From: Chitinophagales bacterium
GTDB taxonomy: Bacteria > Bacteroidota > Bacteroidia > Chitinophagales > UBA10324
DNA: 64,000 nucleotides
Assembly (NCBI GenBank): GCA_025056305.1
Contig: JANWWJ010000031.1
Location: 66,861 to 130,860, forward strand
Reading direction: 5' to 3'
Below are positions 3,779-55,391 of the stretch, one piece after another (the first letter of the stretch is position 1; each line of letters opens with the position of its first letter). The notes beneath the pieces were generated by a model, which worked only from the letters and a program-made list of their open reading frames with translations, did not search any database and was not told the origin of the DNA. The position numbers were made by a program, and so were the translations under genes.

Positions 3779-6540
3779 TACTGTGGTAACAGAACCATTT
3801 TGAAGGTCTGATGAAAGCCCGGATAGCTCATCTCGAGCAAATACATGCCGGCAGGCAGCCGCAATTCATTAAGACTAATCTCTATACGATGCTGACCGGG
3901 CTGCGTTAAAGAGGGATTCTCGGCCGTAAGATTGCGCAGCTCCAAACCTGAGGGGGTTAACAGCCGCATTTGTAATGGCTGCGGTTCCAGCAAGCGATAG
4001 GCCACGGTAAATCGGTCATGCGTCAAAGTCGGAAAGGCCATGACTTCCGTGAGCGTGCCATTGCTGATTCCGGTCGACTTTTCGAAATGTGCGATGATTT
4101 GATCGCTGCCAAACAAGGCAAAGGTGGCCGCTGCACTGGTGCTGTTGGGATTGAGGTAATGAACGTTGGCTGACCAGTAATCAAATTGATAGCCCGTAGC
4201 CGGTACGGCCTGAAGCTCCATATGCGTACCGCTAAGGTATGTGGCTGAGTAGGGGAAATTGCTGATGCTGGTTCCTTCTACGATCAATGTACCACTTCCG
4301 GCCGGCACAACGTCAAAGGTTACGGCAAATTCCGGCAGGTTAGTCTTAAATACTGCTGTGACTACATCGTCCGATGTAAGGTTTAAAAAGATGGAATCGA
4401 CGTTTGGACCCGGATTGATTACGTTGTTGTTGACCAGCCAATGGCTGAATACCATGTTGTTGTTGGGATATGCTTTGGCTTTGAAACCCAGATTAATGTT
4501 TCCGTAATACGACCCCGACCATGGGTAGGTTGTTGGTGTATAGGTGTTTATGGTTACCGTACCGGCTCCTGCTGGGTAAACATCAACGGTGATTTGGTAA
4601 GGCCCGGTTACCTGATAACAATCCACAATACCGGCAGCAATAGCCGCGCACCGCTGCAGCATAAAGTTTTCCAGATAACTCAAATTGTTCTGCCAGCCGG
4701 TGACCGATCCGCCCCACCGGGCAGTGTGGCCGGGCATTTCGGCAGAAAGCAGATCGACAAATTCCTGCTTTAATGCAATCATATTGTCGCAGGTAAATAC
4801 GGTATTGAGCAGCTCTGCATACCGGTTTACATACATGGCCTTAAACTCATCGTTCTTGAGCAGTTCATCCAGAATGTCCAAATGACCCATGCTGGGTCCC
4901 GCGTTGTTAAACACCGCATTCAAGTCGCAGGGATCGGCCGTGTAGCTGGTCGTAGGCCAGCCGGAATAGTTCTGTCCCAGCCCTAATACATTGTCTTCGT
5001 CCCAAAGCGAATAAGTCCATTTGGTGCGTCCTCCGGTCAGGTCACGGCCTCGCCACCACATCGTGTTCCAATTGATCCAGTCACAGTTGACCAGAAAGGT
5101 ATTGAGCATCATGTAGTCAATGACGCTTTGCAAATTGAGTCGTTGCTTGACATACTCGTAGTTGGCTTGTACCGCCATAGAATTATTCATAATAAAATTA
5201 TATAAATTAACCCACGCGGTATCGCTTCCGTACTTAACGTTCAACCCACCCCAATAGGCAAGGATGTCAATCTTATCTTCTTCTTGATCATAATAATATT
5301 CGGTAAAATCGGGCTCGTCCATTTTTTCACGCACCTCATAAATGCCCCAATATTGTCCGTTGATGTAAACAATGGCGTGTTCGTTGGCGCGCAGGTCCAT
5401 TTCCAGATTGTTGCGTAATGCCAACGTATGTACGAAGGCATCGCGCATATGGCAGGGAGCTGTACCCCAACTGAAAGGATAGTTGTCCGAAGCACCAGCT
5501 TTCAAAATCAAATGATCAAAGGAAGGCCGACTGCGGTCGGTGAAAATCTTATAGGGTATGTTGTGGGCGTAGCCGTAATCGTCCTCCATTTCAAAGTCAA
5601 TGCCCTTTTGGGGGAAGGCCCATGAGTCGTTGCCATGCGGGTCAACCTTTCCTTCTCCATCGCCTCGCAGAATTCGATCCTTATCGTAAAACTCCAGATA
5701 TGCATCAATGTCGAAAGTGCCCCAGCTGTTAAACAAAGCATTGAACTCACCGGAAGCAAGCGAAAGGATATAATAGCGCGGATCATGCGTTACGTTGATG
5801 AAATAAGTGTTGGCTACTTCGAAACTAGGCAGCAAGCCTGCGGCTGCATTAAAGGCCCGCGCCCGCAGAAACTTTGTTGAGGTGAGCGTGATGGGCCCTG
5901 TGTACACTGGAGATGATGTGGTGGGCCGAGAGCCGTCTAACGTATAGTGAATGGTCGCATTGGGATCGGAACACGTCAACGTTATGGTTACCGACCCGGA
6001 GTAAAAGCCTTCGGGCATGTCGGCAACTGGTTTGGCGACATAGCCTGGATATCCGGTGCCGTTGCTCTGGTTGGGTGTGGGAGAAGTAAATACCACCCAA
6101 TTAGATGACCCGTTGGGAGAGCGGCCGAAGGAGTGGTTTTTTTGTGTTAGGGTCAGAGCAACCTGATCTATCAGGTTACCAGAGGCATCGCTCAAAACGA
6201 TGTGCTCGTATTTGGTTTGAGTAAGCCTAAAGTTGGTATGAACATGGTTAGAGGTGTTCAGGTTACGATTCGATGCCCAAATAAGCTTAAACTGTCCAGC
6301 AGCTATGCTGACACCGTTGGGAATCTTGTATTTCAATGGATCGGCCGGATCATCTGAAATGTACCAACCCGACAGGTCAACTGTTGTAGTGCCTGCATTA
6401 TACAACTCAATGTAATCTTCGTAATCACCGAAGTTGTCTGCAATAATATTGCGGTTCGAACATGAGTATTCGTTAATGACTACCTGGGCTGAAGCTGTCA
6501 GGCAACACAATGAAACCAGCCACAGCGCAACCTGTTTCAT
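3778..6540 (-). CDS. CotH family protein with N-terminal lamin-tail-like domain and T9SS type-A C-terminal sorting domain
   Basis: 920-aa ORF with a signal peptide ending ASAQ. It has an LTD-like start (VVINEY...DYIELYN) and a CotH-like core (HMRDAFVHTLA...VYINGQYWGIYEVREKMDE, WDEDNVLG). The last roughly 80 aa (MAFPTLTHDRFTV...YLLEM...KMVLL) look like a Por/T9SS CTD. Its stop overlaps the start of the downstream gene (TAATG). Confidence 0.75.
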   Translation of the reverse strand: MKQVALWLVSLCCLTASAQVVINEYSCSNRNIIADNFGDYEDYIELYNAGTTTVDLSGWYISDDPADPLKYKIPNGVSIAAGQFKLIWASNRNLNTSNHVHTNFRLTQTKYEHIVLSDASGNLIDQVALTLTQKNHSFGRSPNGSSNWVVFTSPTPNQSNGTGYPGYVAKPVADMPEGFYSGSVTITLTCSDPNATIHYTLDGSRPTTSSPVYTGPITLTSTKFLRARAFNAAAGLLPSFEVANTYFINVTHDPRYYILSLASGEFNALFNSWGTFDIDAYLEFYDKDRILRGDGEGKVDPHGNDSWAFPQKGIDFEMEDDYGYAHNIPYKIFTDRSRPSFDHLILKAGASDNYPFSWGTAPCHMRDAFVHTLALRNNLEMDLRANEHAIVYINGQYWGIYEVREKMDEPDFTEYYYDQEEDKIDILAYWGGLNVKYGSDTAWVNLYNFIMNNSMAVQANYEYVKQRLNLQSVIDYMMLNTFLVNCDWINWNTMWWRGRDLTGGRTKWTYSLWDEDNVLGLGQNYSGWPTTSYTADPCDLNAVFNNAGPSMGHLDILDELLKNDEFKAMYVNRYAELLNTVFTCDNMIALKQEFVDLLSAEMPGHTARWGGSVTGWQNNLSYLENFMLQRCAAIAAGIVDCYQVTGPYQITVDVYPAGAGTVTINTYTPTTYPWSGSYYGNINLGFKAKAYPNNNMVFSHWLVNNNVINPGPNVDSIFLNLTSDDVVTAVFKTNLPEFAVTFDVVPAGSGTLIVEGTSISNFPYSATYLSGTHMELQAVPATGYQFDYWSANVHYLNPNSTSAAATFALFGSDQIIAHFEKSTGISNGTLTEVMAFPTLTHDRFTVAYRLLEPQPLQMRLLTPSGLELRNLTAENPSLTQPGQHRIEISLNELRLPAGMYLLEMSYPGFHQTFKMVLLPQ

Positions 6541-32697: not shown

Positions 32698-32709
32698 GAC
32701 AAAAAAATT

Positions 32710-32808
32710 AGGGCAAGTGACTTTTATCGCACCGCTACAACCGCCTACCCTTGCTGCCTTCCGACCCTGGGGGTGTTCAGCAGGAGCTGGTCGTAAAAGG
32801 CTTGCCCT
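32710..32808 (-). ncRNA. ffs: Signal recognition particle RNA (small, 4.5S-type)
   Basis: The minus-strand transcript contains CAGGGUC-GGAA-GGCAGCAAGGGUAG. This matches the conserved SRP domain IV (GGAA tetraloop closed by GUC/GGC, with the AGCA symmetric-loop motif), as in E. coli CAGGUCCGGAAGGAAGCAGCCAAGGCAG. The terminal helix AGGGCAAG/CUUGCCCU encloses about 99 nt and is followed by a U7 run. The ends are approximate. Confidence 0.8.
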
Positions 32809-32921
32809 GTTGCAAATGTAAAAGGTGCATGCATTTGACCCATGAGATTTTTCGAAAAATAGTTTTGAACAAATCCTTGGGTATTTTTCTTCGAAAAAGA
32901 CATGAAAGAAATAAAGAGGCT

Positions 32922-37618: not shown

Positions 37619-38230
37619 CTAATAGCCCAACAACTTACGCAAAAACTCTTCCATGAAGGCTGGCCGCAACATTGCCGTGAAGGCCAAACCAAACACGGCT
37701 CCGGTAAAGTGGGCGCTGTGGTTGATGTTGTCACCCCCGCGATAGCTCATGATGTGCGAATACGCCAAATACAGCACCCCCCAAACGATGGCAGGCATAG
37801 GCAGCATACCCATGAGAAATATGGTGTTGCGCGGGTCGATCAGCACAAAAGCAAACGTTACGGCCGACACCGCCCCTGAGGCACCCAAACTGGCGTACCA
37901 GCTCACGTGCCGGTAACGGAAATACGTGGGCAGGTCGCTCACAACTATGCCAGCGACATATAGCAAAATAAACAATGCCGTGCCCCAGGGATCAAAATAC
38001 AACTGGTAGTAACGGAGCACCACCGTTCCGAATGAATAAAGCACTAACATGTTAATGAGCAGATGCGGCCAGTTGGCATGAATCAAGCCAGAGGTGATAA
38101 AGCGCCACCATTCACCATGGTGGGCTATGGCATAAGGCCTCATGGCCATGCGTTCCAACAACAAAGGCTGTCGAAACCCCGAATAGGAAAACAACACGGT
38201 TATCAGGATAATGATCAGAACTACGGACAT
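37619..38230 (-). CDS. Rhomboid family intramembrane serine protease
   Basis: WRFITSGLIHANWPHLLINM, the catalytic GASGAV, and a distal H in HFTGAVFG, with 6 TM helices. Confidence 0.85.
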   Translation of the reverse strand: MSVVLIIILITVLFSYSGFRQPLLLERMAMRPYAIAHHGEWWRFITSGLIHANWPHLLINMLVLYSFGTVVLRYYQLYFDPWGTALFILLYVAGIVVSDLPTYFRYRHVSWYASLGASGAVSAVTFAFVLIDPRNTIFLMGMLPMPAIVWGVLYLAYSHIMSYRGGDNINHSAHFTGAVFGLAFTAMLRPAFMEEFLRKLLGY

Positions 38231-38313
38231 GAGCAGGGCGCCAAAGTATGCTAAAGAACCCGCACTTTAAGCCCCCCGGGGGAAGTGGGCTGATCAACAA
38301 TAATAGTGCCAAC

Positions 38314-38334
38314 AAAATAGCGAGATTTCGCTAT
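38314..38334. repeat. 21-nt repeat copy 1 (AAAATAGCGAGATTTCGCTAT) containing an 18-nt hairpin palindrome
   Basis: Read directly. ATAGCGA-GATT-TCGCTAT is a 7-bp-stem palindrome, and there is an identical 21-mer at 38720-38740. Confidence 0.85.
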
Positions 38335-38336
38335 TG

Positions 38337-38679
38337 GCATACCATACACGGCTATATTCTTTTGTATCCGCCATGATACCCAAATATGATGAAGCACAAC
38401 GATGGCAGCTCAAAGCTGTCCGTCGGTTTATATGGAGGCTTCAGGCGCTTCGGGGTCATGGGTATGCTATATACTTCAGGTTTGTGCCGGCGGAAAGACG
38501 GACGTGTGGAATATCAACTCATGGGGTGAGGCGAGGGCTAAATATCAATCCCAGCAGGCACCACATGTCTGGTTCCGCCGGCCCTGAAGGCTAAGCAGCG
38601 CAAGGGAAAAACAAACGAAACAACCCTATCGTATCCTAAGGCTGCCCGAATAAAAGGGCAGTTTATTTTTCTTTTTTTT
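38337..38679 (+). ncRNA. Candidate unclassified structured RNA (boundaries uncertain)
   Basis: Long-range complementary segments: GCATACC 38337-43 with GGTATGC 38461-67; GCCGGCGGAA 38486-95 with TTCCGCCGGC 38573-82; AGAC 38496-99 with GTCT 38567-70; GTGTGG 38504-09 with CCACAT 38561-66. The region ends in a strong terminator and has no convincing ORF. No known RNA family recognised. Confidence 0.3.
38642..38679 (+). terminator. Intrinsic terminator (plus strand) with no protein gene upstream
   Basis: CTGCCC-GAATAAAA-GGGCAG followed by TTTATTTTTCTTTTTTTT. Confidence 0.65.
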
Positions 38680-38719
38680 ATTCAATAAAAATTCATTTGT
38701 CTGCAAAATTCATACCGAA

Positions 38720-38740
38720 AAAATAGCGAGATTTCGCTAT
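38720..38740. repeat. 21-nt repeat copy 2 (AAAATAGCGAGATTTCGCTAT)
   Basis: Perfect match to 38314-38334, 406 bp downstream. Confidence 0.85.
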
Positions 38741-39071
38741 GGTGCCGCTGTGCTGCCTCTTGTTTTTTTACGGGTACTATGATGCTCTGTGGCACAGCAA
38801 GAGCCCCAATGAGCAATTAATGCTGCCATGAATCATTGTGTTCTGTTGTGCTGCTGTGCACGTAGTTATAAAGTATGGATCAGGAAATGTAGGTGAAAGG
38901 CAACCCAGGCGACGAGAAGAGGCGCTGTGCATACGCCCCTGATGTTGCCCATCTTTTTGGTGTTGCCTTTCACTTTTCCTGATGTAAGGAATTGGGGTTA
39001 CACCGCTTCCGCAGGCCTTCACGACCATTATAAAATGGCCAGATTACTTCTGTTATTATGAAAAGTTGTGC

Positions 39072-39500
39072 TCAATGTTCCAGATGATATGGATGACCAT
39101 GCATGATGGTAAAAGCACGGTACAATTGTTCAGCCAATACGACACGTGCCAGATGATGCGGCAGGGTCATGGGTGATAACGATAGCTTCCAATGGGCCTG
39201 TTGCAGCAAACGATCATCTATCCCATCGGGACCACCGATGACAAAAACCAAGTTTCGCCCCTCATTTATGCGTTGCTGTAGCCATTGAGCCAACTGATCG
39301 GAACTCATGCTCACGCCTCGCACGTCCAGGGCAACCACGACATCAGAACGGTTCAGCCAAGCTTGCTTTCCCGACTTCTTTTCCGCTAAAACACGGCTTT
39401 CTATGTTACAATACTTCCGTAGCCGCAACACATAGCGATTGTACAATTCCGTTGCCTGTGGATCTTTGGTTGTGGAAAGCAACACGATGCTGATCAACAT
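39072..39500 (-). CDS. rlmH: 23S rRNA (pseudouridine1915-N3)-methyltransferase RlmH
   Basis: SPOUT family. FVIGGPDG and C-terminal LSLSPMTLPHHLARVVLAEQLYRAFTIMHGHPYH match the RlmH pattern. Confidence 0.85.
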   Translation of the reverse strand: MLISIVLLSTTKDPQATELYNRYVLRLRKYCNIESRVLAEKKSGKQAWLNRSDVVVALDVRGVSMSSDQLAQWLQQRINEGRNLVFVIGGPDGIDDRLLQQAHWKLSLSPMTLPHHLARVVLAEQLYRAFTIMHGHPYHLEH

Positions 39501-53743: not shown

Positions 53744-53817
53744 TGATCCCGTCAGGATTCAAACCTGAAACCTTCTGATCCGTAGTCAGATGCTCTATTC
53801 AGTTGAGCTACGGGATC
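53744..53817 (-). tRNA. tRNA-Arg (anticodon ACG)
   Basis: Manual cloverleaf of the reverse complement: acceptor GAUCCCG/CGGGAUC, D arm GCUC-AACUGAAUA-GAGC, anticodon arm UCUGA-CUACGGA-UCAGA (anticodon ACG), variable AGGUU, T arm UCAGG-UUUGAAU-CCUGA, discriminator A. 74 nt, CCA not encoded. Confidence 0.9.
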
Positions 53818-54497: not shown

Positions 54498-54504
54498 CCG
54501 CCGG

Positions 54505-54735
54505 TTAACCTTTACTGATCCAGCGCCATAGCCACGCCAATAAGGTGAGTACAGCACTGAGCAACAGCATGGTCGTGATGGGAAAGTAAAACGTGAAATT
54601 TTCCTTTTTGATTACGATATCGCCGGGTAGGCGGCCGAGCCAGCCGAACTTGTTACCCAGTAAATAGATAATGCCCCCGACCACTACCAACAACAGACCA
54701 GCCACGATAAGCCATTTCCCAAGAGTCTGGTGCAT
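54505..54735 (-). CDS. DUF2905 family small membrane protein
   Basis: 76 aa with GRLPGDIVIKKENFTFYFPITT flanked by two TM helices. Confidence 0.7.
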   Translation of the reverse strand: MHQTLGKWLIVAGLLLVVVGGIIYLLGNKFGWLGRLPGDIVIKKENFTFYFPITTMLLLSAVLTLLAWLWRWISKG

Positions 54736-55391
54736 GAGCGTTCAGTTGAAATTTAATTGCTACAGCGAAGTGCTTTAGGATTCAAAGCTGTATGAGCAAA
54801 AGTTTGACAAAGAAACGAGAAAACTTTACGTCAGCGCATCTCAAAAAAGTAAAGGCCTGATGGCAGGACATTAGGGTCTATCCGAGCCAAGGCTCCGTGC
54901 AGCCTGCTTGTAGGCAATGATAATATATATTAGTAAATGAATTAACAGCGTTGACCAGCGCCTGCGCGGCATCGGTAGCGGCGTAGTCCAAGGTGGATGC
55001 CAGCACGGTCAGGGCATGGCTTGTTTACACCCATTGAAAGCAAACGGAGGCACTCTTGCTTGAGTGGATATATGATCCGGTAATTTGAGGAAAAGTATAA
55101 TCAGAATTATTCCAGGCCGGAATGGTGAACACCAGCTTTTTTTAATCAAAGTGTTTCAAAATAACCCGACGTCTCTCTGCCTTGACTTGTGATGTTATGG
55201 AGCTAGATAGAGTTCGGTTTTCCCTTTGACTTAACAAACATGCAGCAGCATTGTGCCAGTATAAACATTAAATAATTCTCCTGAAAAGTATTGGTGTTTT
55301 TTGGAGAATTACTAACGGTTGTTTTACCCGTAAAATCCTTATCGTTCTGTTAAATACCACACTACCGAAGCGGAGGTAAGCAAAATTGTTT

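Follow-up and report, generated by a model that had tools for sequence, protein, structure and literature searches.

Lineage-restricted orphan structured small RNA (sRNA) motifs, among them Chlorobi-1, Flavo-1, Acido-1, and Bacteroidales-1, were reportedly described by Weinberg et al. in 2010, and all of them are said to be in Rfam. Tandem sRNA genes under one operator-controlled promoter type offer a second precedent, known from PrrF1/PrrF2 of Pseudomonas, which are under Fur, and from AbcR1/AbcR2. Here, we describe a locus that shares features with both. It lies in a 64,000-nucleotide (nt) stretch of a Chitinophagales bacterium genome (GenBank assembly GCA_025056305.1, contig JANWWJ010000031.1, positions 66,861 to 130,860 of the forward strand; the whole stretch is called the window below, and positions are counted from its first letter) and fills the gene-free spacer between a rhomboid gene and rlmH. 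Our analysis indicates that this spacer probably consists of two tandem paralogous genes for a structured RNA. The predicted RNA, about 300 nt long, is a previously undescribed family confined to one Chitinophagales lineage.

The two units resemble the orphan sRNA motifs in being stand-alone and intergenic, with a predicted promoter and intrinsic terminator of their own, covarying hairpins, and conserved unpaired segments, and in having no associated gene and a narrow taxonomic range. They differ in being larger (about 300 nt, with two long rods), in being known from four genomes only, and in matching no Rfam family even at E ≤ 10. As a first-pass annotation of the window had proposed, we scanned the region 38100–39200 against Rfam 15 (4227 families), taking a score at the family gathering threshold as membership, and obtained no match; what appeared at E ≤ 10 was noise, with a best score of 19 bits against a threshold of 86 bits. 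The homologous spacers of three relatives (L001, L003, and L009, listed below) gave no Rfam match, and literature searches returned no description of this RNA.

With PrrF1/PrrF2 and AbcR1/AbcR2, the units share the head-to-tail arrangement of paralogues, each with its own palindromic upstream site and promoter, and unit 1 has its own terminator. The PrrF and AbcR RNAs are 100–150 nt long, base-pairing, and Hfq-dependent, whereas the units described here are twice as long and highly structured, and their palindrome is unlike the Fur box of the PrrF system. The long irregular rod-like hairpin with conserved unpaired nucleotides also recalls 6S RNA, the RNA polymerase-binding regulator. However, 6S RNA is near-universal and forms a single rod, about 180 nt long, whose ends pair and whose center opens into a large bubble, whereas each unit has two rods joined by a linker and appears to be a recent lineage-specific insertion; no 6S-type Rfam match was found, and we rejected this assignment.

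Guide and scaffold RNAs, such as the omega RNA of TnpB/IscB or the dCas12f-sigmaE guides of Bacteroidetes (PMC13472631), likewise combine a conserved scaffold (here the second hairpin domain, D2) with freely varying segments (here the interior of the first domain, D1, and the 3′ tail). Unlike those systems, the locus has no adjacent TnpB, IscB, Cas12f, or sigma-E gene in the four genomes and no transposon end, and its variable parts are themselves folded and followed by a terminator. A riboswitch or other cis-regulatory leader was discarded as well: no co-oriented gene lies downstream, the order being unit 1, terminator, unit 2, and convergent rlmH. The annotated genes (Pfam-supported or longer than 200 amino acids) downstream to 41515 are all on the minus strand, and the plus-strand open reading frames (ORFs) there are short and overlapping.

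Two tandem units share one architecture

The spacer comprises two tandem plus-strand units, unit 1 at about 38311–38679 and unit 2 at about 38716–39071. Each is built in the order A-tract, palindrome, promoter, P1/D1 rod, linker, D2 hairpin (P2–P5), and variable tail, with the following features:

38314–38335, no strand: palindrome 1, AATAGCGA-GATT-TCGCTATT preceded by an A-tract; the −33 TTG of the unit-1 promoter comes from its right end
38334–38364, plus strand: predicted unit-1 promoter, with TTG at 38334–38336, a 20-nt spacer, and TTCTTTTG inside TATATTCTTTTG at 38353–38364
38371–38461, plus strand: unit-1 D1 rod; the P1 strand CCAUGAUaCCC (38371–38381) pairs with GGGGUCAUGG (38452–38461)
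38462–38473, plus strand: unit-1 linker GUAUGCUAUAUA, placed from the alignments
38474–38589, plus strand: unit-1 D2, with P2 at 38474–38480/38583–38589, P3 at 38486–38495/38573–38582, and P4 and P5 further in
38519–38538, plus strand: unit-1 G-rich motif UCAUGGGGUGAGGCGAGGGC at the D2 apex; its UGGGG pairs with a downstream CCCA (P5)
38590–38679, plus strand: unit-1 variable 3′ tail and predicted intrinsic terminator, with a stem at 38639–38664 and a T-run to 38679
38720–38741, no strand: palindrome 2, identical to copy 1 over 21 nt; read on the minus strand, 38740 to 38723 followed by TTTTTCGGTA is terminator-like
38742–38776, plus strand: unit-2 promoter region, degenerate, with CTCTTGTTTTTTTAC in place of TATATTCTTTTG
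38777–38878, plus strand: unit-2 D1 and linker; the P1 strand CUAUGaUGC (38777–38785) pairs with GCACGUAG (38858–38865), and the linker is UUAUAAAGUAUGG (38866–38878)
38879–38983, plus strand: unit-2 D2, with P2 at 38879–38887/38975–38983, P3 at 38893–38904/38962–38973, and a degenerate apical G-rich motif
38984–39071, plus strand: unit-2 3′ tail, with small hairpins and no canonical terminator, adjoining the rlmH stop codon

We found relatives by exact-protein look-ups of the closest rlmH and rhomboid homologues, which have the same gene order in three genomes. Units are known from four related uncultured Chitinophagales, always in the rlmH–rhomboid spacer; besides the window, these are as follows:

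L001 (L002 is identical), GCA_033583955.1: rhomboid 84% identical, 984-bp rlmH–rhomboid spacer, two units
L003 together with L007/L008 (one organism), Logan SRR27730020/21: rhomboid 80% identical, contigs breaking at the palindrome, two units
L009, GCA_053487875.1: rhomboid 69% identical, 436-bp spacer, one diverged unit

The last bases of the palindrome form TTG; 20 nt on lies TTCTTTTG within the conserved block TATATTCTTTTG, and CUAUG follows 8 nt further. In the generic helix P1, this 5′ CUAUG and its extension pair with an extension plus CAUAG about 80 nt downstream, closing D1, the interior of which is not conserved in sequence among the units. D1 and D2 are separated by a conserved, apparently unpaired linker with the consensus UAUGCUAUAUAC, which is 12–14 nt long in five units and, by alignment, 2–4 nt in L009. 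D2 is a long hairpin composed of P2, a 5-nt bulge, P3, P4, and P5, with the conserved G-rich motif UCAUGGGGUGAGGCGNGGGC at its apex. This motif is the most conserved segment of the predicted RNA and is nearly identical in window unit 1, both L001 units, and L003 unit 2.

Parts of this architecture had already been noticed in the first-pass annotation. The nested helices that it pointed out, with GCCGGCGGAA (38486–38495) pairing with TTCCGCCGGC (38573–38582) inside an outer CTTCAGG/CCTGAAG helix, proved to be P2 and P3 of unit 1, and its perfect 12-bp inverted repeat with a 57-nt spacer is P3 of unit 2. The plus-strand terminator that it placed at 38642–38679 is present, the stem beginning slightly earlier, at 38639.

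Within D1 of unit 1, GGCUUCAGG at 38437–38445 duplicates the 5′ strand of P2 and could form an alternative 10-bp helix with CCUGAAGGCU (38583–38592), in window unit 1 only. Separately, a search of the neighboring genes for sRNA–target pairing turned up one candidate, which we dropped: the linker 8-mer GTATGCTA (38462–38469) recurs at 38246–38253, 12–19 nt upstream of the rhomboid start, so that a rhomboid leader with UAGCAUAC could be a pairing partner of the linker. Neither L001 nor L007 retains this recurrence, which probably reflects chance.

The fold is conserved through compensatory changes

Compared with shuffled sequence, plus-strand folding gave z = −5.3 for unit 1 and z = −4.5 for unit 2. 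Minimum free energy folds of single units showed the P1/D1, linker, and P2–P3/D2 architecture in six of six units. The cores of these units measure 226, 226, 230, 218, 213, and 261 nt, and their sequence identity barely exceeds that of shuffled controls.

The main covariation alignment covered 132 columns of helices in the six units and was curated by hand to fit the structure. In this alignment, 97.7% of cells are paired and 20 of the 36 pairs, including pairs of P1, changed on both sides, a result matched by none of 500 shuffles; in slid controls, with partners moved by 1–3 columns, 34–45% of cells were paired and at most six pairs showed two-sided change. Because the main alignment had been fitted by hand, four units were also aligned with plain MAFFT, free of any such fitting, and given to RNAalifold for independent confirmation; P2–P5 were recovered, with 13 of 32 pairs compensated. 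The comparison of the spacer among relatives, which had been put forward as a check on the locus, revealed both conservation and covariation, and the structure is conserved by compensatory change, as expected of an sRNA gene, across six related sequences in a hand-fitted main alignment.

We also built a covariance model of D2 from four units. Its training copies scored 90–100 bits, with window unit 1 at 99 bits. The D2 of window unit 2 was the best non-training match in the whole window but a weak one (14 bits, E 0.07), and the D2 of L009 was not found by this model. A sequence-only four-unit model matched 38718–38788 of window unit 2 (E 1.5e-5), reaching just the palindrome, promoter, and 5′ end of this unit and of the L009 unit.

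Unit 2 of the window has diverged: its −7 box and G-rich motif are degenerate, and a canonical terminator is absent. Its P1, P2 (9 bp), and P3 (12 bp) are fully paired with one G-U, and the z-scores of its fold (given above) and of its core (−5.9) are among the strongest of the units, which argues against simple decay. The first-pass annotation had offered two readings, a small element in decay or at least one non-coding RNA gene. The promoter boxes, covarying fold, terminators, and synteny favor RNA genes, and the paired P1–P3 of unit 2 speak against a decayed element.

Promoter boxes and terminators point to the plus strand

The primary-sigma promoters of Bacteroidetes have the form TTG-N19/20-TAnnTTTG. 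The pattern in the units is TTG, 20 nt, TTnnTTTG, in which an 18-nt spacer varies in sequence while the distances stay fixed; the box sequence and the 18-nt distance to the palindrome are conserved in five units. TAnnTTTG −7 boxes upstream of the signal recognition particle (SRP) RNA and tRNA genes of the window, TACATTTG and TAATTTTG, served as promoter references:

32707–32814, minus strand: SRP RNA, 100 bits with the Bacteroidales small SRP model
53744–53817, minus strand: tRNA gene used as a promoter reference

Transcription of unit 1 would start near 38368–38371. Plus-strand hairpin-plus-U-run terminators are found in four of the six units (window unit 1, L001 units 1 and 2, and L003 unit 2). 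As far as sequence evidence goes, the units have the same-strand promoter and terminator of their own that an sRNA gene should have. We assigned the units to the plus strand because the promoter boxes with fixed spacing face rightward and the terminators lie on the same strand. Both predicted RNA genes are antisense to the flanking genes, and unit 2 is convergent with rlmH.

The palindrome is a candidate operator

The palindrome spans 20 bp, AATAGCGA-N4-TCGCTATT, and overlaps the promoter. It was first noticed as a pair of 21-nt palindromic repeats, and AAAATAGCGAGATTTCGCTAT is indeed identical at 38314–38334 and 38720–38740, these two copies in the 64-kb window comparing with 0.00 expected. 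Five copies from three genomes share the same arms (ATAGCGA/TCGCTAT), and those of L001 unit 1 are one base off; in L009, both arms have changed symmetrically, in a compensatory manner, to AATAACTA-N4-TAGTTATT. The arms are near-invariant while the spacer and the RNA helices of the same units vary at most positions. In five copies, 18 nt separate the end of the palindrome from the TATATT box, which window unit 2 does not have, and the palindrome is centered about 44 bp upstream of the predicted transcription start. Read on the minus strand, it becomes an 8-bp hairpin (free energy about −8 to −9 kcal/mol) with a T-run behind it, one copy being flagged as terminator-like, and the A-tract before the palindrome, which gives this T-run, is kept in five of six copies.

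Sequence comparison therefore finds an inverted repeat at a fixed promoter position that is more conserved than its flanks, as is typical of an operator. Inspection of Pfam matches and gene order found no regulator gene in the conserved neighborhood of the units. On balance, we lean slightly toward the palindrome being a putative operator of a dimeric regulator, and we rate this above a role as a minus-strand terminator or insulator against rlmH read-through, which ranks second as a tentative proposal. The two readings are mutually compatible, and the symmetric arm change in L009 fits a co-evolved factor or a plain hairpin alike.

Distribution and origin of the units

Relatives whose rhomboid is 57–62% identical have rlmH–rhomboid spacers of 19–140 bp with no unit, and no homologues with a rhomboid identity between 62% and 69% were found. 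These short, unit-free outgroup spacers indicate that the units are a lineage-specific insertion into an ancestral rlmH–rhomboid pair. A cassette would therefore have been inserted into this tightly linked pair and later duplicated.

Neither the rest of the 64-kb window nor some 100 kb of related loci contained further copies. Pattern scans for palindrome plus promoter gave chance matches only in GTDB species genomes and JGI metagenomes (L004–L006), two pattern scans of IMG/VR gave one chance match, in a high-GC phage, and an rlmH peptide-pattern scan of GTDB genomes yielded no relative.

Contig ends coincide with the palindrome or unit in L003 (6749–6767), L007 (1–25), and L008 (1–105), which fits assembly breakage at a tandem repeat. 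In this L003/L008 organism, the two units are about 84% identical over 44 comparable nt, much closer than the pairs in the window or L001, suggesting gene conversion or a more recent duplication. L001 also carries an extra 260-amino-acid gene without a Pfam match (4989–5771) between an aquaporin gene and rlmH; the window lacks this gene and has an aquaporin–rlmH gap of 145 bp.

The spacer and its flanking genes

The spacer is bounded by two minus-strand genes, whose proteins are both 100% identical to proteins of one Chitinophagales metagenome-assembled genome:

37619–38230, minus strand: rhomboid-family intramembrane protease gene (ORF and Pfam PF01694, E 8e-24), left boundary of the spacer
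38231–39071: gene-free spacer
39072–39500, minus strand: rlmH, a SPOUT 23S rRNA pseudouridine-1915 methyltransferase gene (ORF and Pfam PF02590, E 7e-43), right boundary of the spacer

The gene-free region, described earlier as about 840 bp, measures 841 bp between the flanking ORFs and has no Pfam match inside. It is also, as had been stated, the longest non-coding stretch of the window. The next stretch without ORFs of at least 110 amino acids, 54498–55391, contains a 76-amino-acid membrane-protein ORF that leaves only 656 bp (54736–55391). This second-longest gene-free stretch is flanked by that ORF and a secG-like ORF and has no Rfam match at E ≤ 1. The 86-, 61-, and 83-amino-acid ORFs reported in the spacer are all there, and none of the three has a Pfam match.

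On the minus strand, about 11 nt before the rhomboid ATG, ATACTTTG (38240–38252) comes close to the consensus of a Bacteroidetes −7 box, and the rhomboid-upstream GCCAAAGTA is conserved in L001. These observations suggest that, once the units had been inserted, rhomboid acquired a promoter of its own, one with a very short leader.

Alternative explanations

Several points weigh against two plus-strand RNA genes. Transcription, strand, and RNA ends are all inferred. The minus strand folds nearly as well as the plus strand, which is more stable in four of six units and about equal in the others, and the helices, being nearly strand-symmetric, cannot fix the strand by themselves. Unit 2 has neither a good −7 box nor a canonical terminator. 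With six related units (plus one fragment) from four genomes, formal covariation statistics have low power, and the 132-column alignment was fitted to the structure by hand; moreover, the cores of window unit 2 and of the L009 unit are unrecognized by models built without them. The GTDB and JGI pattern scans gave no further copies, so nothing ties the RNA to a partner gene. Finally, the frame that opens at the P1 AUG is unexpectedly poor in stop codons in four to five of the six units (combined P about 0.001).

The alternative that survives best, which we consider unlikely, is a cis-acting module of the rlmH–rhomboid transcription unit rather than a trans-acting RNA pair, with structures that matter on the minus strand or in sense/antisense pairing. 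Read-through from rlmH would be terminated by the palindromes, and convergent plus-strand transcripts would pair with the long rlmH 3′ untranslated region or with rlmH–rhomboid read-through RNA, uncoupling or tuning rlmH and rhomboid in an excludon-like manner. The location suits such a module, the units occupying what is a 19–140-bp junction in the outgroups, as do the nearly equal folding of the minus strand, the minus-strand hairpin and T-run of both palindromes (one called terminator-like), the retention of the A-tract in five of six copies, and the extension of unit 2, without a terminator of its own, to the rlmH stop codon. However, the promoter boxes with their fixed spacing face rightward, and four units close with plus-strand hairpin-plus-U-run terminators. 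A pure antisense or insulator role needs no conserved unpaired linker, no G-rich motif, and no compensatory upkeep of five helices, and arms that stay invariant while the RNA helices vary freely fit a protein-binding site better than a mere hairpin.

Less probable still is a coding role, in which each unit would be a near-leaderless gene that encodes a small basic protein (about 55–76 amino acids), or else a dual-function RNA, and the AUG of CUAUG would serve as the start codon. This AUG lies 8 nt past the −7 box in five units, and the frame that it opens runs for 73, 73, at least 76, 55, 13, and 66 codons across the six units, the short one being window unit 2; five of six are open, with shuffle P values of 0.014–0.14 individually. 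A 71-amino-acid ORF on the same strand was annotated by a gene caller in L009. Against a protein, homologous conserved nucleotide blocks fall in different frames between units, and the translations align poorly, with no common residues beyond those imposed by the conserved RNA motif. The AUG is itself part of one strand of the covarying helix P1, and most of the substitutions that separate the two copies of the L003/L008 organism are non-synonymous. Searched with an alignment of the ORF translations, 5.8 billion clustered proteins yielded no homologue at E ≤ 10; full HMMER scanning found none at E ≤ 1e-3 in 1.84 billion representatives, and there was no Pfam match. A frame with amino acid conservation among homologues was thus not found, and the conserved small protein that the first-pass annotation had allowed for is, by frames, alignments, and homologue searches alike, not encoded here. 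In window unit 1, the stop-depleted frame is 38373–38594 (plus strand), and L001, L003, and L009 have equivalent frames.

Least probable of all is a remnant or non-autonomous mobile element of the MITE (miniature inverted-repeat transposable element) or REP (repetitive extragenic palindrome) kind, with palindromes as recombination or transposase sites and incidental structures: the absence of units from outgroup spacers (hence an insertion), their varying number (one or two), the palindromes bounding each unit, and the breakage of metagenome assemblies at the repeat would suit it, but only two tandem copies exist in the 64 kb, no terminal inverted repeats or target-site duplications mark the array ends, no transposase or recombinase lies nearby, the searches of the window, the related loci, GTDB, JGI, and IMG/VR described above gave no extra copies or chance matches only, the syntenic position in all four genomes argues for vertical inheritance, and the compensatory changes show selection on the fold.

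Proposed function and significance

We favor two tandem structured RNA genes as the reading of the spacer, and the following mechanism could apply. The palindrome would most likely be bound by a dimeric transcription factor and may, in addition, halt antisense transcription that arrives from rlmH. Each cassette would be driven by a Bacteroidetes sigma-A-type promoter (TTG, 20 nt, TTnnTTTG), giving a transcript that begins at the foot of helix P1 and ends at the variable tail, with a terminator in four of six units. The covarying helices would serve as a scaffold from which the invariant unpaired linker and the G-rich apical motif contact a protein or a target RNA. That the RNA acts in trans as a regulator through these two elements, under palindrome-dependent control, is a tentative suggestion.

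A much more speculative idea, to which we give little credence, is that an undescribed RNA-guided or RNA-scaffolded system uses the cassette as its RNA component. In such a system, D2 and its invariant G-rich motif would be the protein-binding scaffold, and the D1 rod or the 3′ tail, which diverge freely, would confer copy-specific specificity. The promoter–RNA–terminator module could be inserted and duplicated as a whole, and a partner protein encoded elsewhere would recognize or control the palindrome.

The Chitinophagales are not known to have the small-RNA machinery of the classical Hfq/ProQ kind, and only a few regulatory RNAs have been described from them. The distribution of the units is very narrow (four uncultured genomes), and a trans-acting function is only inferred. 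If transcribed, they would represent a new structured RNA family for the Chitinophagales (Bacteroidota). They would also provide an evolutionary case: a conserved gene pair received an RNA-gene cassette in antisense orientation, the cassette was duplicated, and its copies drifted almost to random sequence identity while retaining their helices. The invariant palindrome would offer a direct route to the regulator and to the conditions under which the RNA is expressed.

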